A stretch of 64,000 nucleotides of DNA from Candidatus Jordarchaeales archaeon (GTDB taxonomy: Archaea > Asgardarchaeota > Jordiarchaeia > Jordiarchaeales > Freyrarchaeaceae), in assembly GCA_038889235.1 (NCBI GenBank), contig JAWAHN010000002.1:104288-168287 (forward strand), read 5' to 3'. A model generated the notes under the pieces. The model did no database searches. It had not been told where the DNA came from and was given only the letters and a program-made list of their open reading frames with translations. Shown here piece by piece: positions 2,859 to 55,306 of this stretch (its first letter is position 1; every line of letters starts with the position of its first letter). A program made the position numbers and the translations under genes.

Positions 2859-4229
2859 TTGGTAGAAATCAGAGAAATCCTCCCTGGGCGTTTTGAAAGA
2901 ATAGGTGCTCACTCACACATAAAGGGTCTCGGGTTGCGAGGACTTAAAGCCGAACTGGTCGCCGACGGCATGGTTGGACAAACAGAGGCTAGAGAGGCGG
3001 CAGGAATAATTGTCAGAATGATAAAGGAGGGCAAGATGGCCGGCCGAGGGGTCCTGCTTGCGGGACCACCGGGGACAGGTAAGACCGCCATTGCCATCGC
3101 TATAGCTAAAGAGTTGGGTGAAGACGTTCCGGTAGTAATGATCACAGGTTCAGAGATATACTCTGAAGAGGTAAAGAAAACCGAGATCCTAACTCAGGTA
3201 TTAAGGAAGGCTATAGGGGTCAGGATACACGAAATAAAGAAAGTGTACGAGGGTGTCGTCAAAAACTTGGACATAACTATGGTGAAGAACCCCTACAACC
3301 CCTACCAACAGATCCCCCAGTCCGCGAAGATAACGATTGCCACTAAGGACGAATCCAAAACTTTCGAGGTTGGACAAACCATAGCTATACGCTTGATCAA
3401 CGAGGGAGTTAGCGTAGGCGACGTGATAATGATCGACGCAGAAACCGGCCGAGTTACACGTGTAGGGAAAGCCGAGTCCCCAGACGTCAAGAAGTATGAC
3501 ATTGAAGCGGAGAAGCCGGTTCCAGTGCCCTCGGGACCAATACTTAAGGAGAAGGAGTTCATCTATACGCTGACCCTCCATGACCTTGACGAGATAAACG
3601 CCAGAAGGAGCAGCTTCTCGATATTCAGCCTGTTTGGAGGAGGAAGAGAAGAAAAAGAAATAGACCCAGAGATACGGGAGAGAGTGAACCAGATGGTAAA
3701 GAACATGGTCGAGGAAGGGCGGGCTGAAATCCTGCCAGGCGTAGTGTTCATAGACGAAAGTCACATGCTCGACATAGAAGCATTCAGCTTCATAGCCAGA
3801 GCTATGGAGTCCGAGCTAGCACCAATAATAATACTGGCGTCGAACAGAGGGTTCGCAAAGATAAGGGGAACAGAGCTTGTGTCACCGCATGGAATGCCAC
3901 TAGATCTCCTGGATAGGCTTCTCATAATAAACACGAGGCCATACACTGAAGAAGAAATACGAGAAATACTGAAAATAAGAGCCAAGGAGGAAAAGATAGA
4001 GCTCAGCGAGGAAGCACTAGAGTACCTAACACAGATAGGAGCGAAAACCAGTCTGCGCTATGCAGTGCAGCTCCTAACCCCAAGCATGGAACACGCTAAG
4101 GAAAACGGACGCAAGAAACTAACCAAGGAAGACGTGCAAGCCGTGGAGAAACTTTTCGCTGACGTTAAGCGTTCAGCCAACTACGTGAGAAATCACGAAA
4201 AAGAGTTCATGGTTTCAGAACCAGCATAA
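2859..4229 (+). CDS. TIP49/RuvB-like AAA+ ATPase
   Basis: 456 aa. The N-terminus (ERIGAHSHIKGLGL) is typical of the TIP49 family. Walker A GPPGTGKTAIA, Walker B VVFIDESHMLD, and an inserted OB-like domain between them. Confidence 0.85.
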   Translation: MVEIREILPGRFERIGAHSHIKGLGLRGLKAELVADGMVGQTEAREAAGIIVRMIKEGKMAGRGVLLAGPPGTGKTAIAIAIAKELGEDVPVVMITGSEIYSEEVKKTEILTQVLRKAIGVRIHEIKKVYEGVVKNLDITMVKNPYNPYQQIPQSAKITIATKDESKTFEVGQTIAIRLINEGVSVGDVIMIDAETGRVTRVGKAESPDVKKYDIEAEKPVPVPSGPILKEKEFIYTLTLHDLDEINARRSSFSIFSLFGGGREEKEIDPEIRERVNQMVKNMVEEGRAEILPGVVFIDESHMLDIEAFSFIARAMESELAPIIILASNRGFAKIRGTELVSPHGMPLDLLDRLLIINTRPYTEEEIREILKIRAKEEKIELSEEALEYLTQIGAKTSLRYAVQLLTPSMEHAKENGRKKLTKEDVQAVEKLFADVKRSANYVRNHEKEFMVSEPA

Positions 4230-5705: not shown

Positions 5706-5795
5706 TGGCGGCCCCGAGGGGACTTGAACCCCTGAATTCCCGGCTTAGGAGGCCGGTGCCCTCTCAGGAACACATCCTGGCTAGGCCACGGGGCC
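5706..5795 (-). tRNA. tRNA-Arg (anticodon CCU) with a small non-canonical intron in the D-loop region; CCA encoded
   Basis: Minus-strand sequence GGCCCCG..CCGGC-CTCCTAA-GCCGG..AGGGG-TTCAAGT-CCCCT-CGGGGCC-G-CCA. It has 7-bp acceptor, anticodon stem-loop and T-arm. It is about 12 nt longer than a standard tRNA, and the excess lies in the D-loop (GTGTTCCTGAGA). Confidence 0.7.
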
Positions 5796-5908: not shown

Positions 5909-6004
5909 GCGGGCGTAGTCCAGCCTGGTCTAAGACGGCGGCCTGCCACGCCGCGGACCCGGGTGGTTAACAAAAACCAGGGATTTCAAATCCCGGCGCC
6001 CGCA
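5909..6004 (+). tRNA. tRNA-Gly (anticodon GCC) with a 21-nt intron between positions 53 and 54 (5964..5984)
   Basis: Acceptor GCGGGCG/CGCCCGC with discriminator A. Anticodon arm GCGGC-CTGCCAC-GCCGC. T-stem CCGGG / CCCGG with T-loop TTCAAAT interrupted by TGGTTAACAAAAACCAGGGAT. A BHB-like fold is present: H2 ccc(g)/(a)ggg and a 4-bp intron hairpin. TATA-like tttaagta lies about 30 nt upstream. No CCA encoded. Confidence 0.7.
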
Positions 6005-7446: not shown

Positions 7447-8115
7447 GTGGGTTCGTGGAAAAAATTTTTATTCTGTTTGTTGGGAGTTCTTCAAGTTGGT
7501 GCCCGAAAAGGAGGGTTTGTCGTGCGCCTTTGGTTGCTTGACATCCTTGCTTGTCCGGCTGATGGTTGCAAGTATTACCCGTTGAAACTATCGATATTTG
7601 AGTGGGACGACAATGACGCTGGACGAATACTTGAGGTGAGTGAAGCGTACGCTAAAGGCAACGCTGAAAAGGCGAGGCAGGAGTTGAAGGATAGCGTCAA
7701 GGTTGATAGGGTGAAGGGCCTTGTGGAAGACGAGCTTGTTAGGTCTCCGATGGAGGTAAAAGACTACGCTCTGGCTTTTAAAGAGAAGGTTAACAGCGTG
7801 TTTAGCAACGTTGTAATCGACGAAACGGGGGCTAGCACTAAGCTTATAAAGTCAATACTCAGTTTCGAGCCCCCCTCCGTCCTCAACGAGTCATTTGAAA
7901 ACACGATATATGTCGCCAACTGGCTGGCCTTCAAAGTCAATGTAAAAAGTGGCATCTTGGTCTGCGAAAAGTGCGGCCGCTTCTACCCCATAATAGATAC
8001 GATACCTCACATGCTACCCGACGATCTGAGAGACAAAAAAGAGGATAAAGAGTTCCTTTTGAAGTGGCAGAAGTTCATCCCAAAGAAGATACTTGAGGCA
8101 GAGGGCATCAAGTAG
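7447..8115 (+). CDS. Trm112-like zinc-binding domain protein with a large internal insertion
   Basis: N-terminal LLDILACP...C(K)YYPL and C-terminal LVCEKCGRFYPIIDTIPHMLPDD together form a Trm112p signature. The two halves are separated by about 140 aa. The real start may be the GTG near 7522. Confidence 0.55.
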   Translation: MGSWKKFLFCLLGVLQVGARKGGFVVRLWLLDILACPADGCKYYPLKLSIFEWDDNDAGRILEVSEAYAKGNAEKARQELKDSVKVDRVKGLVEDELVRSPMEVKDYALAFKEKVNSVFSNVVIDETGASTKLIKSILSFEPPSVLNESFENTIYVANWLAFKVNVKSGILVCEKCGRFYPIIDTIPHMLPDDLRDKKEDKEFLLKWQKFIPKKILEAEGIK

Positions 8116-8124
8116 CCCGGCGCG

Positions 8125-9285
8125 CTAGAATAGTGGGGCATACTTCGAAATAGTCTCCTTAAGTTTTTTAATGGTCTCTCTCACGACAGCAAATATTCTA
8201 TCTTTTTCGTAGGTTAGCGGTGGCTTTTCCTGGTCATACATGGTCTCTGGGTCCCTAGGGACATCGCCAAGTTCAAGTGCGATTTTAGTGTAGAGCTCCC
8301 TCCACGACGGAGGCGTATGTTCCGGCGGTTTAACCCCCAGTAACTTACAGACCATCAGGGTCCACGCTTTTGCCGTGCATCCTATATCGTATCCTCCCCC
8401 ACCGAGGAGTATTAGTTTACCGCCTGTAGCCTCGTGTGCTAGCTTATGAAGTATCTCCATTATTTTCTCGTAGCAGTCCAGTGTGAGCGCCTCCGTGGTT
8501 AACGGATCCCTGAAGTGCGTATCGACACCGCATTGTTGTATTATTATGTCGGGCTCATAGGACTTCACTAGCGACGGAACCACTTCGTTGTATGCATAAA
8601 GGTATGCCTCGCTGAACGTTAGGGGAGGGAGTGGAACGTTCACGCAGTAACCTTTCCCCTCTCCCTCTCCAACTTCGTCTATGAACCCTGTTCCAGGATA
8701 GAGGAATCGCCCGTCCTCGTGGAAGGAGACCGTCAAAACGCTCGGGTCATCGTAGAACACTTCTTGGGTTCCATCTCCATGGTGACAGTCTATGTCGACG
8801 ATCATTATTTTCTTCAAACCATACTTCTTCTGAAGGTATCTCGCAGTTATGGCGACATCATTGAAAACGCAGAAGCCAGCGCCTCTATCTCTGGCGGCGT
8901 GGTGCATTCCCCCTCCTGGGTTAAACGTGTGAACCGCCTTTCCTTCAACGACTAACTCTGCAGCCTTCAAAGAGCCACCGACGAGAATTGCCGACGCACT
9001 GAACATTCCCTTGAATGCTGGCGTGTCACCATAGTCTAAGTACCCCACGCCTATCTCATCAAGCTTCTTAACGCGTTGTAAGTATGCCTCACTGTGAACC
9101 AGTTTAAGCTCCTCCTCGCTCGCCATCCTAGCCTCGGCAATGTAGAGGTCAGGGTGACTGAGTAGACCTATTCCCTTCATGAGCTCCATCATGAGAACCA
9201 GCCTTTGAGGGCGCAACGGGTGCTCGGGGCCGAAGAAGTACTTAAGATAATCATCTGAATAAACTAAAGCTACTTTTCCACCCAA
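8125..9285 (-). CDS. histone deacetylase superfamily protein (acetoin utilization AcuC / HDAC-like)
   Basis: 386 aa with DIDCHHGDGTQ, FHEDGRFLYPGTG and GGGGYD motifs characteristic of the arginase/deacetylase fold. Confidence 0.85.
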   Translation of the reverse strand: MGGKVALVYSDDYLKYFFGPEHPLRPQRLVLMMELMKGIGLLSHPDLYIAEARMASEEELKLVHSEAYLQRVKKLDEIGVGYLDYGDTPAFKGMFSASAILVGGSLKAAELVVEGKAVHTFNPGGGMHHAARDRGAGFCVFNDVAITARYLQKKYGLKKIMIVDIDCHHGDGTQEVFYDDPSVLTVSFHEDGRFLYPGTGFIDEVGEGEGKGYCVNVPLPPLTFSEAYLYAYNEVVPSLVKSYEPDIIIQQCGVDTHFRDPLTTEALTLDCYEKIMEILHKLAHEATGGKLILLGGGGYDIGCTAKAWTLMVCKLLGVKPPEHTPPSWRELYTKIALELGDVPRDPETMYDQEKPPLTYEKDRIFAVVRETIKKLKETISKYAPLF

Positions 9286-10900: not shown

Positions 10901-12071
10901 CTATCCAAATATCGTCCTAATAGTCCTCGACACCACTAGCGGCATCGCCTCAACTATAATTCTCCTGCACCCCTTACGGCCGACGAGTAAGTCTGAAATA
11001 AGTCGCTGTATTTTTCCCGATGAAGCGTCCACCACTCTCCTTCCGCTACCTTTCCTTTTCAAAAAGAAGTTTCTAAGCCAAAGGCTCCACTTCAACTCTC
11101 CTCCAACCTCTCTCATGAGCCGCTTTCTGTACCAATGCAATGTTTCACAGCCTTTCTCATAAACTCTAAGCACACCTTCAGCACCTACAACTGCTGATAG
11201 CATCGCAAAGTACATTCCCTCACCGGTTATAGCCGAAACAGCGCCCGCAGCGTCCCCCACAGCCACCCACCTCCTCCCGCAAACGTTTTCTATAATACCT
11301 GAAAGAGGAACCAATGCTGTCTCAAACTTCCACTCGCCCACCCTTAACCTTGGGCGCCACTAGAGGGTGCCCCCAAACGAAGTTGTCCAGGTATTTCTTA
11401 AGCGAACCCCTAACCTCTGAAAGCAGAGATCCAACTCCAACCACGAGCGAACCCCTTCTAGGAAAAATCCAGGCATACCCGAAAGGCGCGACCCCGCCAC
11501 CATAATAAAAGTAGTTTCTACACCCGAAATCTTCCTCTACACGTTTCTCCCCAACCTCTACAATGTACTGGAAGCACAACCCTAACTGGTCTCTCCTCCA
11601 ATTCCACCCGGAAATAGTTCGCGAGAGCGAGAGGACTCCGTCGGCAAACACTATCCACTCGCACTCGTAATCGTTGCTCCCACGGCATACTACACTTTCC
11701 TCTCTAAAGGAAACCTCTTTCACTCTCTCCCCGCAAAAAACTCTCCCCCCTTCTCCCTCGACTCTTTCAGCTAAGTGAAGTCCAAGTCTAGTCCTGTCAA
11801 CGTTTACCCCTACTCTCTCATTGTAGTCAACCATGAACTGTCTTTCCCCAACGGAAACAGCGACACCATACAACTCTCTTTCAAACACTTCTGAGCTTAT
11901 CTTGAACTTTCTCACGGCTCTCTCGGTGAGCATTCCTCCACACGGCTTCCCTTTGTTTGGCGTCTCCTTCTTGTCAACCACAATAACCCTCAAACCTGAT
12001 CTAGCCAACTCTTCACCGCAAACTAGCCCGGCGGGCCCCCCTCCTACGACGACCACATCGCACCTCAACAC
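10901..12071 (-). pseudogene. geranylgeranyl reductase (FAD-dependent) split across two frames (N-part 11322..12071, C-part 10901..11341)
   Basis: The N-terminal part has VVVVGGGPAGLVCGEELARSGLRVIVVDKKE (dinucleotide-binding fold). The C-terminal part has RWVAVGDAAGAVSAITGEGMYFA (GGR FAD motif). Frame A ends ...KVKGGRVEV* at 11322-24, and frame B continues ETALVPLSGIIENV. The junction lies at a TTT run. Confidence 0.7.
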
Positions 12072-19462: not shown

Positions 19463-19618
19463 AGGCGCTAATAGATGGCAGTGGTCTTTAACACTTTTAC
19501 TTTTCGAACTCTTTGTCTTTTTATCTTTTGGGAAAGTTTAAAAATTCCGTCATCCCTTCTTATTCAAGAAAGTTCTAGGTTTCCAATATTAGCAGCAGAG
19601 AAGGGAGGGCGAATCCAT

Positions 19619-19945
19619 ATGGCTAAATCAAAGGAAAAAGGTTCTTCGACGGAAAATATGGTTTTTGTAGGTAAAAAACCGACAAAGTGAGGCGGAAGCC
19701 GCCCACGTCGAATGAGTTATGTTTTGGCGTGTGTAATGCAGTTTAGTCAAGGAGCCAATGAGGTGAGAGTCGTAGCGCGTGGAAGAGCGATTTCAAAGGC
19801 AGTCGACGTCGTGGAAATAGTGAGGCAGCGCTTCATGCCAGACTCCGTGAAACTAGGAGAAATTAAAATCGGAACAGAAACTATTGGCTCAGGCGAAGAC
19901 CAACGCAACGTGTCCACAATAGAGATACAGCTCGTCAGAGTGTAA
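19619..19945 (+). CDS. alba: DNA/RNA-binding protein Alba, interrupted by a 27-nt BHB intron (exons 19619..19685 and 19713..19945)
   Basis: Exon 1 encodes [22 protein letters not shown] (the conserved Alba beta1 VvlvGkKPvmnYV). An in-frame TGA follows at 19688-90. Exon 2 encodes (M)[42 protein letters not shown]...[12 protein letters not shown]. Removing 19686..19712 gives GKKPTMSYVLA, which is colinear with Alba orthologs. GGAGG lies upstream. Confidence 0.75.
19686..19712 (+). other. predicted 27-nt bulge-helix-bulge intron inside alba mRNA
   Basis: H2 is cgac (19680-83) / gtcg (19707-10), 4 Watson-Crick bp. The bulges are aaa (19684-86) and aat (19711-13). The intron hairpin is gtg-a-ggcgg aag ccgcc-cac (19687-19706). 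Cleavage after the 2nd nt of each bulge removes 19686..19712, takes out the in-frame TGA, and rebuilds an ATG codon from a19685 plus t19713-g19714. Confidence 0.65.
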
Positions 19946-48929: not shown

Positions 48930-50081
48930 TTGAGCTCTGAGTGGAGCCTAGAGAAGCAGCTCGAGAGCATAGCTTCCGAAGTTAGACGCATTGAGAAAGG
49001 AAGAGAGATGTTAGTGAGCGTCTTAAAGCGTTTTAAGAACGAAGAGTTGTTTGACGAGGATTTGAGGAGGTCCTTCGGAGAGCTCGTTGAAAGTAGGCTT
49101 GCCTATCCATCCCCCCCAATAGACCTAACTGGGTTGAAGATTGCCTGTGTTGACGGCGGAATGGTCAGTAGAAGTCTCCGCTTGATAGACATTATCGCCG
49201 TAAGAGCTGTCGCAGTGATATTCAAATATGAGGTTGGAGGCTCCGTCAGCGCCTTCTATTACCCAAGGGAGCATCCTCCACCTAAAATAATCTTCAATGT
49301 TGATCCGTTCTCGCAGGCCGACTTTGATGTTTCAGCGGGACTTGAAAGACTTTCGCACGAGCTAGACGTGGCTATCAATGTTCAGAAAGAGTACAGCATA
49401 GATCTGCTTCTTATGGATGGAAGCCTACTCCCACAAGCAAGCGATAAACCCTACACCCCTGAACTCGAAGCAAAGTATCTGAAAGTTGTGAAGCTTTTTG
49501 AAAGGCTGTACAGTGTTTGCATTAAAAACGGCGTTTCACTCGCAGGCGTTATCAAGGACACTCGAAGCACGCGCTTCGTTCAACTTTTATCAAGCATTAT
49601 ACCTGTCCTAGTGGAAAGAAACCCGTCACTTAGGGAAATCTTGTCTTTCGACTACCGATCCTCTATCCGGAGCTTAACGGACTCGGAGCTCTTGTTCAGG
49701 TTGTTAGACAAAGGTGAGAGAAGTATGATTTTACGTTACTCTGACAACCCATGCGCTCACCCGGTCCTAAAGGATCTAAGCAGAGAGTGGCGCGACAAGT
49801 TCTATATAATGTATCTTAAGCCAGCGGAGCTAGACCATCCGTTAAGGGTTGAATACCTCGCCATGGGAAACCCCACTAGCGAGGCTAGGAAAGTAGCGTC
49901 TGCCGTGATGGCCCTCTCTATGTACCATCCCGAGCACGCCCTACCCTCAGTCCAGCTTGAGGCTCATGTGCAAGCAAAACTCGCCGAAAGAGAGGTAGAT
50001 TTTATTTGCGACCAGCTAGCCCACAAGATAGGCGTCCCACCCAGCTTTTTAAGGACAAGAGATAAACTATTCCTTACATAA
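48930..50081 (+). CDS. nurA: DNA end-resection nuclease NurA
   Basis: IACVDGGMVSRS catalytic Asp motif in an RNase H-like NurA domain. Lies immediately upstream of herA. Confidence 0.7.
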   Translation: MSSEWSLEKQLESIASEVRRIEKGREMLVSVLKRFKNEELFDEDLRRSFGELVESRLAYPSPPIDLTGLKIACVDGGMVSRSLRLIDIIAVRAVAVIFKYEVGGSVSAFYYPREHPPPKIIFNVDPFSQADFDVSAGLERLSHELDVAINVQKEYSIDLLLMDGSLLPQASDKPYTPELEAKYLKVVKLFERLYSVCIKNGVSLAGVIKDTRSTRFVQLLSSIIPVLVERNPSLREILSFDYRSSIRSLTDSELLFRLLDKGERSMILRYSDNPCAHPVLKDLSREWRDKFYIMYLKPAELDHPLRVEYLAMGNPTSEARKVASAVMALSMYHPEHALPSVQLEAHVQAKLAEREVDFICDQLAHKIGVPPSFLRTRDKLFLT

Positions 50082-50095
50082 AGGGGCGGTTAAGA

Positions 50096-51607
50096 ATGAA
50101 ATCTATCGGTACAATAATCTGTGACGACCATGGTCCGACGACTTCCGAGTTTACATTCGTCGTTACGTCCTCCGAAACCGTCCCTGTGAGACGAGGCCAG
50201 ATGGTTCAAGTTGAGACAGAGGAGGGGTTAATGCTAGCTGTTGTCCAAGAAGTTGTCAAGACGAACCGCTTCTACTATCATGCTGAAGCAGTCAAAGAGC
50301 TTGAGAAGAGTGGGAGAACTCTTTCGTCAATTTTCCCGTGTGATAGATGGGATATGTTGATTGCGACAGCTAAGCCCTTGGGAGTACTCAAAGGGGGGTT
50401 ATTTGACAAAATAACGTTCCCCCCTTCACCGGGAGATAAGGTTTACCTTGCGGAAAGAGAGGTTCTCTCTAAGTTTTTCGGGTTTGACGAGGAAAACGGC
50501 TTGGAAATAGGGTTTATGAAGTTTCACAACGTTCCAGTTAAACTTAATATGACGCGGCTGCTACAAAAACATCTGGCCATCCTCGCCATGAGTGGCTCAG
50601 GAAAATCCTATCTCGCCACAGTACTCATAGAAGAAATACTTTCGAGGAAAAAAGAGGAAGGAAGGATATTTGTTCTAGTGGTTGACGTTCACGGCGAGTA
50701 CGTAGCACTTTCACAAGACGAAAGCTGGGGGCTAGCGCACGCGGTAACCGTAGTAAAGGGGCCGTACGTTCAGTTTGCCACACCACTTCTCACTGAAAGA
50801 CACTTGGGAATGTTCCAGCCGGAAATGAGCCCCGTACAAATGCGTGAACTTGGTCGGCTTCTTTCAGAGGTGAGGAAGGACAAGGGCTTTGCTTACTCTC
50901 TTTCAGACGTCATATCTTTCATAGAGAAAGATGAGAGGATGAATCCTAGAACTAAGGAAGCCTTGCTAGGCTGGCTTTACGAACTGGAAGACACACAGCT
51001 TTTTGGAGTGGAAGAAAACCCACACCTACCAGAAATAGCTAAGCCCGGGAGGGCGGCTGTGCTAGACTTGAGCGAAACTCTAAGCTTGAGAAAGAAGCAG
51101 ATGATTGTCGCGTACGTTCTTCAACGCTTGTTCGACTTGAGAAGGCGCAACCTAATCCCTCCAACCCTAATAGTACTCGAGGAAGCTCACCAGTTCTGCC
51201 CAGAAGCAAAGCAGGAACTAGCCATTTCGAAAAGCGTTATCGAAACTATAGCGAGGGAGGGAAGGAAGTTCTACTGCTCACTGTGTCTAATCTCCCAGCG
51301 TCCGGTAAGACTCGCGACAAGTGTACTCAGCCAGGCTAACACGCACATAATTCTGCGGATAACGAACCCAAACGACCTGAGAGCCATAGAGCTCTCCTCT
51401 GAAATGATCACCCGCGAAGTACTCGGCATGATAGCAGAGCTCCCTGTAGGCGAAGCCTTGATAGTGGGCAGCGCAGTAAATGCCCCCCTTTTCTTAAAAG
51501 TTAGAAAAAAGAAGTCGTCTCTCTCAGTCTACGAGGAATCCATGGAAGAAGCGGCTAAAAGGTTTGAGCAAGGTGAAGTCAACCACCCCTATACTAGTGC
51601 CACATGA
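50096..51607 (+). CDS. herA: bipolar DNA helicase HerA (FtsK/VirB4-like ATPase)
   Basis: N-terminal HAS-barrel, Walker A AILAMSGSGKSY and Walker B VLVVDVH/EEAH. Confidence 0.85.
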   Translation: MKSIGTIICDDHGPTTSEFTFVVTSSETVPVRRGQMVQVETEEGLMLAVVQEVVKTNRFYYHAEAVKELEKSGRTLSSIFPCDRWDMLIATAKPLGVLKGGLFDKITFPPSPGDKVYLAEREVLSKFFGFDEENGLEIGFMKFHNVPVKLNMTRLLQKHLAILAMSGSGKSYLATVLIEEILSRKKEEGRIFVLVVDVHGEYVALSQDESWGLAHAVTVVKGPYVQFATPLLTERHLGMFQPEMSPVQMRELGRLLSEVRKDKGFAYSLSDVISFIEKDERMNPRTKEALLGWLYELEDTQLFGVEENPHLPEIAKPGRAAVLDLSETLSLRKKQMIVAYVLQRLFDLRRRNLIPPTLIVLEEAHQFCPEAKQELAISKSVIETIAREGRKFYCSLCLISQRPVRLATSVLSQANTHIILRITNPNDLRAIELSSEMITREVLGMIAELPVGEALIVGSAVNAPLFLKVRKKKSSLSVYEESMEEAAKRFEQGEVNHPYTSAT

Positions 51608-55039: not shown

Positions 55040-55306
55040 CTACTTCTTCTCCTTCTCCTCCTTCTGGGGGATTTCCTCTGTCAAATCAGGCTTTATGAAG
55101 AGTATGTTATTCCCCCTTATGAATACCTCCCCATACCTAGCTATTGGTCCATCTTCATCCAGTTCCTCGGCATTAGTTAGACATAGGTTCATGTACGAAT
55201 CTATGTGTGAAAGCCTTCCTTGAATCGTTCTACCATCTTTCAACTTCACTAGAATCAAGTTGTTAATAGCTTTTTGCAGAACAGCTAGAGGCTGGCTTCC
55301 AGACAT
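55040..55306 (-). CDS. Sm-like archaeal protein (LSm)
   Basis: Sm1/Sm2 motifs LNNLILVKLKDGRTIQGRL...IRGNNILFI. Confidence 0.75.
   Translation of the reverse strand: MSGSQPLAVLQKAINNLILVKLKDGRTIQGRLSHIDSYMNLCLTNAEELDEDGPIARYGEVFIRGNNILFIKPDLTEEIPQKEEKEKK

Follow-up and report, generated by a model that had tools for sequence, protein, structure and literature searches.

A predicted bulge-helix-bulge intron in the alba coding sequence of Jordarchaeia (Asgard archaea)

According to a 2020 study (PMC7714728), the intron of the crenarchaeal cbf5 gene is the only bulge-helix-bulge (BHB) intron reported in an mRNA besides that in the 5′ untranslated region (UTR) of Haloferax HVO_1309. The cbf5 intron, which has a relaxed BHB motif in most cases, is cut between the second and third bulge nucleotides, is associated with a hetero-oligomeric form of the tRNA splicing endonuclease EndA, and has undergone lineage-specific loss (PMC2738675). 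Introns are present in 92–95% of the tRNA genes of Freyarchaeia and Atabeyarchaeia, where they are often non-canonical and multiple (PMC11291895), and Asgard archaea encode an (αβ)2 EndA with an L1 loop, which has broad specificity and cleaves relaxed motifs (PMC5829648). Here we analyse a 64,000-nucleotide (nt) stretch of contig JAWAHN010000002.1 (assembly GCA_038889235.1; hereafter the window) from an archaeon of the Asgard class Jordarchaeia, in which the gene for the chromatin- and RNA-binding protein Alba is split into two exons by a 27-nt insert. Comparison with related loci indicates that this insert is very probably a tRNA-type (relaxed BHB) intron of the alba pre-mRNA, removed by the splicing endonuclease.

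The features of the interrupted locus, which holds the only copy of alba in the window, are as follows (coordinates of the window).

19537..19546, + strand: putative TATA-box-like element TTTAAAAATT, about 73 nt 5′ of the start codon, as read from the sequence
5′ of the TATA-box-like element, + strand: purine-rich AAAG, a possible transcription factor B recognition element (BRE), likewise a reading of the sequence
19603..19609, + strand: Shine-Dalgarno-like GGGAGGG, 9 nt 5′ of the exon-1 ATG
19619..19685, + strand: alba exon 1, 22 codons and the first base of a Met codon, encoding β-strand 1 and the GKK lysines
19680..19683, + strand: 5′ strand (CGAC) of the central 4-bp helix, within exon 1, pairing with 19707–19710
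19684..19686, + strand: 5′ bulge AAA, 3 nt, with the predicted cut at 19685/19686
19686..19712, + strand: predicted BHB-type intron, 27 nt, excision of which restores Alba; insert-free orthologues have the same junction
19687..19706, + strand: intron hairpin GTGAGGCGG-AAG-CCGCCCAC, 20 nt, with 3 bp, a bulged A, 5 bp and a 3-nt loop
19688..19690, + strand: in-frame TGA, two codons past the splice site, which stops translation of unspliced mRNA
19707..19710, + strand: 3′ strand (GTCG) of the central helix, within the intron
19711..19713, + strand: 3′ ‘bulge’ AAT, 3 nt, with the predicted cut at 19712/19713; a relaxed, loop-like site
19713..19945, + strand: alba exon 2, the last two bases of the Met codon, then SYVLACV...IQLVRV, with the TAA stop at 19943–19945

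Exon 1 opens with the ATG at 19619 and ends ...VFVGKKPT; its GKK lysines are the equivalents of the nucleic-acid-binding K16 and K17 of Sso10b. The downstream open reading frame (ORF; 19712–19945) encodes 77 residues, MSYVLACV..., in frame with exon 1. An earlier note on this DNA, made from the letters alone, had described both reading frames, the first ending at the in-frame TGA, as well as the cgac/gtcg helix, the bulges aaa and aat and the 20-nt hairpin (in full gtgaggcggaagccgcccac); the frames prove to be as it gave them base for base, and so do all the coordinates of the motif. Removal of 19686–19712 joins a19685 to t19713 and g19714, with the predicted ligated junction CCGACAA/TGAGCTATG; this recreates the ATG and produces a 300-nt ORF for a 99-residue protein, as the note had also proposed. 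The intron sits between the codons for Thr22 and Met23, which is to say between β-strand 1 and helix 1.

Pfam and structure-based comparisons confirm that the joined product is a complete Alba. The 77-residue piece matches the Pfam Alba profile (PF01918) over positions 12–65 (65.3 bits), and the spliced protein matches it over positions 2–65 of 66 (76 bits, E = 2e-21), bearing out the claim that the downstream product on its own lacks a core β-strand. The spliced protein aligns across the junction, and with no gap, to the Alba chains of PDB entries 2z7c, 8xao and 4z9e, a junction-spanning stretch of 14 residues being aligned with IFVGKKPTMNYVLA of 4z9e. Like other members of the Alba / Sso10b family (PF01918; PDB 1h0x, 2z7c, 4z9e), the spliced product covers the whole domain; there is no difference at the level of the protein, and the structure of the gene alone sets this Alba apart.

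Alba loci were pulled from related contigs, nine Jordarchaeia-type loci being the best matches in a scan of GTDB species. The most similar proteins, at 92% and 88% identity, belong to ‘Candidatus Freyarchaeota’ / Jordarchaeia, and the organism is thus not the Thermoproteales-like source that the earlier note had envisaged. Ten distinct alleles carry an insert at the identical codon site, with lengths of 27, 28, 29, 30, 31 and 40 nt; nine Jordarchaeia species genomes were recovered, and the seven with the insert span both major clades. The alleles, by length of insert, are listed here with their hairpins.

27 nt: GTGAGGCGGAAGCCGCCCAC (window)
28 nt: GTGAGGCGGACACCGCCCCAC (L014)
29 nt: GTAGATCCATGTTAGTGTCTAC (L011)
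30 nt, five variants: GTAGATTCAC-NNNN-GTGTTCTAC (L001, L005, L002/L016-19, L020, L097)
31 nt: GTAGAAGCACGCTAAGTGTTCTAC (L119, L173-175)
40 nt: GTAGGGTAGGCTTCATGATAAGCTCTACCTTAC (L015, L096)

The hairpins fall into three unrelated families with the same overall shape, around which the remainder of the motif is closely conserved. CGAC/GTCG is kept in all ten alleles; the 3-nt element after CGAC is AAA or AAT, with bases 1 and 2 (retained in the exon) invariant and base 3 A or T, and that after GTCG is AAT, ATT or AGT, with a variable middle base (A, T or G) and an invariant final T, which is retained in exon 2. An in-frame TGA or TAG lies two codons after the junction in every one of the ten, and inserts of 28, 29, 31 and 40 nt shift the frame between the exons. 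At the other archaeal Alba loci fetched, no interruption was found at this site, as judged from match lengths and, for metagenome loci, from a motif and ORF check (16 loci were not assessable). A 78-residue Alba of Odinarchaeota (P0094), considered as another interrupted gene, was rejected, its DNA being uninterrupted with a missed TTG start. The contig of one 40-nt allele (L015; JAPDJY010000048.1) is labelled ‘Thermoproteota archaeon’, although its alba is 96% identical to that of the window over the best-matching segment; the label is probably wrong and the bin a Jordarchaeia genome.

Since the bulge bases vary among alleles, the positions of the cuts can be deduced from them. When both cuts are slid together along the motif, PTMSYVLA appears in all ten alleles only with the cuts placed after the second nucleotide of the 3-nt elements. 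A shift of +1 or +2 replaces the invariant Met with Lys in most alleles, and a shift of −1 or −2 replaces it with Leu or Val in some.

The register agrees with what is seen in orthologues that have no insert. Six of these (L006-L009, L012 and L013; 88–92% protein identity) read CCGACAATGAGTTATG at the DNA level, or in L013 CCAACAATG, and their junction is exactly the predicted ligation product. Three further contigs, L176 and L177 (SRR28530378, 13.2 kb) and L178 (SRR28530379), likewise have no insert and the junction as predicted. Compared with the insert-bearing L005 (SRR28530383), L176 shows no mismatches over approximately 6.15 kb except for the exact 30-nt insert, and L178 encodes the same insert-free protein as L176. 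A second species provides a similar case: L092 (SRR28530378) corresponds to the L019-type gene with the insert missing and the predicted junction in its place, the two showing 8 mismatches over 1057 nt. In a neighbour-joining tree of the coding sequences the insert occurs in both major clades, and at least three insert-free tips or groups are nested among insert-bearing ones.

The insert-free twin contigs can be taken in either of two ways. An RNA origin would make them direct evidence that splicing occurs in vivo; a DNA origin would mean a very recent and precise loss (for example, through complementary DNA (cDNA) of the spliced mRNA) or gain (through reverse splicing) of the intron, and such an event at the splice junction is most simply explained via a spliced RNA intermediate. 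No tRNA gene was found on the twin contigs to act as an internal DNA/RNA control. That gain or loss of BHB introns is an active, DNA-level process in present-day Asgard populations is a suggestion we make tentatively, and towards which we are somewhat more sceptical than inclined.

Folding of the RNA is consistent with the proposed motif. For this analysis the core was defined as helix strand, bulge, hairpin, helix strand and three nucleotides. In all nine cores tested the minimum free energy (MFE) fold is ((((...(hairpin))))..., with z-scores of −2.6 to −5.5 relative to dinucleotide shuffles; for the 34-nt core of the window the MFE is −15.7 kcal/mol (z = −4.5), and none of 200 shuffles folds as well. 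In the alignment of the ten alleles, standard pairs occupy 97.8% of the cells (9 scored pairs), compared with 12–53% when the partner is slid, and none of 500 shuffles matches this value. Two pairs of the hairpin stem are A-U in some alleles and G-C in others, as compensatory changes of both partners, and the central helix is paired in every case. The 5′ bulge is closed by the intron hairpin. The arrangement, in which a bulge lies 3′ of each helix strand with two bulge nucleotides assigned to the 5′ exon and one to the 3′ exon, is the canonical one, as worked out from canonical tRNA intron positions.

A motif of this kind is not distinctive by itself. A strict generic BHB scan of the window gave 84 hits on the + strand and 105 on the − strand, against 77–98 in shuffles of the + strand, so that there is no enrichment, and a relaxed scan gave thousands; the strict scan also missed the alba intron, owing to the bulged A in its hairpin. 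No second split gene was recognised in the window by the BHB scan with an ORF-joining test, those of its candidates that were inspected proving to be neighbouring genes or ordinary coding sequence. The motif as such is frequent, then, but its exact register with a gene-restoring excision, together with conservation in ten alleles with differing hairpins, is not expected by chance.

Both exons are under purifying selection. Across the final 11 exon-1 codons of 14 insert-bearing alleles, the ratio of nonsynonymous to synonymous polymorphism (pN/pS) is 0.095, with third codon positions making up 9 of the 14 variable columns, and across the initial 60 codons of exon 2 it is 0.13. A GGAGG-type site is located 5′ of the exon-1 ATG in every allele in which exon 1 could be located; no Shine-Dalgarno-like site precedes exon 2, and in the window its ATG at 19712 lies inside the folded motif. 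The CCG ACA codons that contain the 5′ helix strand are invariant in insert-bearing alleles, with silent variants (CCA, CCT, ACG) in the insert-free L013, L021 and L022; invariance of silent sites only where the insert is present is as expected if an RNA helix constrains the codons. Two further regularities concern unspliced mRNA. In every allele of both the usual insert and the second one described below, a stop (TGA, TAG or TAA) follows the 5′ splice site by no more than two codons, and the middle base of the 3′ bulge is never C, such that the first codon of unspliced exon 2 is ATG, TTG or GTG. These may reflect selection against translation of the unspliced mRNA, or coincidence.

In one clade, four independent contigs have, in addition to the usual insert, another one 8 nt upstream of it that is built in the same way. 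The two-insert alba loci are the following.

L119: 458-605
L173: 249-395
L174: 57-203
L175: 659-805

Exon 1 of these alleles ends ...IVYIGRK and is followed by CAGG-AAG-TAAGG(A/C)GGGAA(C/T)TCTTCCCCTTTG-CCTG-AAA, which includes a 24-nt hairpin and an in-frame stop (TAA) and amounts to 31 nt at the canonical register. The 8 nt between the two inserts are ACCGACAA, after which comes the usual 31-nt insert. The upstream insert folds to the same shape, with a z-score of only −1.0 to −1.6, and the contigs differ in it at two places, in the bulge and in the loop of the hairpin. Its removal at the canonical register restores AGG AAA CCG ACA (R K P T). Only if both inserts are spliced out at their canonical registers do the conserved Pro-Thr codons of the 8-nt micro-exon make sense.

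Taken together, the ten alleles, the test of the register, the insert-free junctions and the selection on exon 1 support the relaxed BHB intron that the earlier note had proposed. In the mechanism that we envisage, the pre-mRNA would fold locally into the 4-bp CGAC/GUCG helix, with a 3-nt bulge and the hairpin after its 5′ strand and three unpaired nucleotides after its 3′ strand. EndA would then cut after the second nucleotide of each 3-nt element (that is, after 19685 and after 19712), and an RtcB-type ligase would join the exons, freeing the 27-nt intron, probably as a small circle. The spliced mRNA would direct synthesis of the normal 99-residue Alba, and the unspliced mRNA, on which translation is predicted to stop at the TGA two codons into the insert, would yield only a 23-residue peptide. 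The anatomy of the locus and its conservation are directly observed, as are the excision register, the selection on the two exons and the insert-free alleles with the expected junction; the enzymes, and splicing in cells, we infer from them.

Several observations weigh against this mechanism. Constrained folding of the alleles revealed no convincing or consistent exon-exon helix closing the 3′ site, so that the motif departs from the strict hBHBh′ form and is instead a relaxed one (HBh′/BHL-like), for which a broad-specificity enzyme would be needed. In a context of 76–84 nt the MFE fold of the window allele lacks the CGAC/GUCG helix, and a fold constrained to the BHB is less stable by 4.7 kcal/mol; for most other alleles, folded with approximately 25 nt of flanking exon at either end, the same constraint gives the MFE fold itself or one within 0–3.3 kcal/mol of it. 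The central helix is invariant in the ten alleles and so provides no covariation, and the covariation within the hairpin amounts to few independent events. Additionally, no EndA or RtcB gene was found among the Pfam-scanned ORFs of the window, which included most but not all of the long ones.

It is conceivable that the gene is split but not spliced, with a separate 23-residue peptide and a 77-residue Alba translated from its own start, which perhaps assemble non-covalently, and with the hairpin as an intercistronic element. Gene callers do predict products of 73–85 residues, and unspliced exon 2 always begins with a possible start codon (ATG, TTG or GTG, never CTG). Nonetheless, exon 2 is not preceded by a Shine-Dalgarno-like site and its start is within the helix, and such a gene would leave unexplained the invariant CGAC/GTCG, silent sites included, the exact 3-nt spacings, and the compensatory changes in the hairpin. 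It would also not account for the fact that the BHB register alone regenerates the ATG in all alleles, nor for the repeated occurrence of precise fusion alleles; and where there are two inserts, the 8-nt piece with the conserved Pro-Thr codons would have no means of being translated. We consider this arrangement very unlikely.

Less probable again is that the insert is an inactivating DNA insertion, or the gene a decaying pseudogene, with only the insert-free alleles functional. The coexistence of insert-free and insert-bearing alleles in near-identical genomes is what might be expected in that case, whereas the low pN/pS of both exons, measured on insert-bearing alleles, indicates strong purifying selection, and the insert has been kept in most of the species genomes and on both sides of the main division of the class. 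Moreover, the window has no other alba, and no target-site duplication is present at the insert. A blastn-short search of approximately 147 kb of Jordarchaeia DNA for further copies of the inserts returned only chance matches of 10–14 nt, which argues that they are not a repeated element in the DNA sampled.

Translational recoding, either of the TGA (as selenocysteine or by readthrough) or through ribosome bypassing as in phage T4 gene 60, merits still less credence. The window allele taken singly would permit it, with an in-frame insert of 27 nt and a hairpin directly after the TGA, and Jordarchaeia possess selenocysteine machinery (PMC9723677). In other alleles, however, the stop is TAG, and where the insert length is not a multiple of three the frame is shifted, so that neither readthrough nor recoding of the stop can join the exons. 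Readthrough would, furthermore, add 9–10 residues in the conserved β1-α1 turn, which is seen in no intact Alba, and for bypassing there is no take-off/landing codon pair common to the alleles that gives the conserved junction. The earlier note had regarded a gene start at 19712 and readthrough as poor fits, a judgement upheld by the comparative data (the insert-free junctions, the allele lengths, the register, the selection on exon 1 and the position of the Shine-Dalgarno-like site). A sequencing or assembly artefact, in whose favour stands only the metagenomic assembly of the source genome, has next to no probability, the 77-residue piece being encoded identically, and the allele interrupted identically, on at least nine contigs from separate assemblies (including GCA_038820475.1 and GCA_038897395.1), with homologous inserts in many species and samples.

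If the insert is accepted as a BHB intron, its nearest counterpart is that of cbf5, which encodes a pseudouridine synthase (Watanabe et al. 2002; Yoshinari et al. 2006; Yokobori et al. 2009, PMC2738675). Both are short introns within a coding sequence, with a relaxed BHB motif, cuts predicted between the second and third bulge nucleotides, and a hetero-oligomeric, broad-specificity EndA in the host lineage; in addition, both have a patchy distribution with lineage-specific absence, and in both cases the unspliced gene would give no functional protein. The cbf5 intron lies at the codon for the catalytic Asp and occurs in Desulfurococcales/Sulfolobales, whereas that of alba is in the gene for a chromatin/RNA-binding protein in an Asgard class, has a companion intron and a micro-exon of 8 nt in one clade, and differs in presence or absence between otherwise identical contigs. 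For cbf5, cDNA and in vitro cleavage have established splicing, whereas for alba it is deduced from comparison of genes; the two would share a mechanism, but they are not the same intron family. The non-canonical (relaxed HBh′/hBH/BHL) tRNA introns of Thermoproteales and Freyarchaeia/Atabeyarchaeia (Marck and Grosjean 2003; PMC11291895) have the same H-B-hairpin geometry and, like the alba insert, are tens of nucleotides long, occur as several to a gene, and are found in the same lineage and indeed in this window, in the tRNA-Gly gene described below; for alba, in contrast, the host RNA is an mRNA, which has no exon-exon helix provided by a tRNA body and from which excision must preserve the reading frame. 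The 5′ UTR intron of Haloferax volcanii HVO_1309 (PMC7714728) is likewise carried on an mRNA substrate of the archaeal splicing endonuclease; however, it lies in an untranslated leader with the coding sequence intact, and the Haloferax enzyme is a homodimeric α′2 form that needs a strict BHB.

Full-text searches of the openly accessible literature turned up no account of an intron in alba, nor of a BHB intron in any Asgard coding region, subscription-only literature being outside the search. The mechanism is a known one; what appears to be new is the host gene, the phylum, and the two-intron arrangement with its micro-exon. Coding-region BHB introns are very rare in the literature searched, to which alba would add a second host gene and, as far as that search shows, the first example from Asgard archaea, the lineage closest to eukaryotes. 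Its occurrence in a lineage with tRNA genes saturated by non-canonical introns supports the idea that an endonuclease of relaxed specificity lets introns spread into mRNAs. As Alba is abundant and binds both chromatin and RNA, dependence on splicing could, as a matter of speculation, provide a point of control for its expression.

A practical consequence is the mis-annotation of alba genes. Among the public records (P0004 and P0121-P0129), those of NCBI and JGI give truncated products of 73, 77, 78 and 85 residues, in which β-strand 1 and the DNA-binding lysines are missing, and those of ENA and Logan give 118-residue products in which an in-frame TAG is translated as Q. These inconsistent gene calls are artefacts of ignoring the insert.

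Among other genes of the window, two concern tRNAs. A tRNA-Gly(GCC) gene (5909–6004, + strand; Rfam 41.8 bits) has approximately 21 extra nt in the T arm, which is a non-canonical intron position, and simple folding of this insert gave no clear BHB. A tRNA-like gene at 5706–5795 (− strand) was assigned the anticodon ‘??’ by ARAGORN, probably because of introns. A geranylgeranyl-reductase-like gene (10901–12071, − strand) consists of two ORFs that overlap at 11322–11341 and encode 249 residues (FAD-binding, GGR_cat) and 146 residues; the split resembles a single-base frameshift near GGGCGAG, with no obvious BHB-like element, and its possible explanations are a frameshift, a sequencing error and a pseudogene. 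The + strand also contains a gene for a TIP49/RuvB-like protein (2859–4229) and a NurA-HerA locus (48930–51607), and a gene for an LSm protein is on the − strand (55040–55306). In a 222-residue ORF (7447–8115, + strand), a 40-position Trm112p zinc-ribbon profile is matched over residues 30–184, with its halves separated by a large insertion; such an insertion between the zinc-ribbon halves is a feature of eukaryotic Trm112 and not of the short archaeal proteins. Finally, a gene of the class I/II histone-deacetylase family (8125–9285, − strand) lies approximately 10 kb from alba; the Alba of Sulfolobus is regulated by lysine acetylation.

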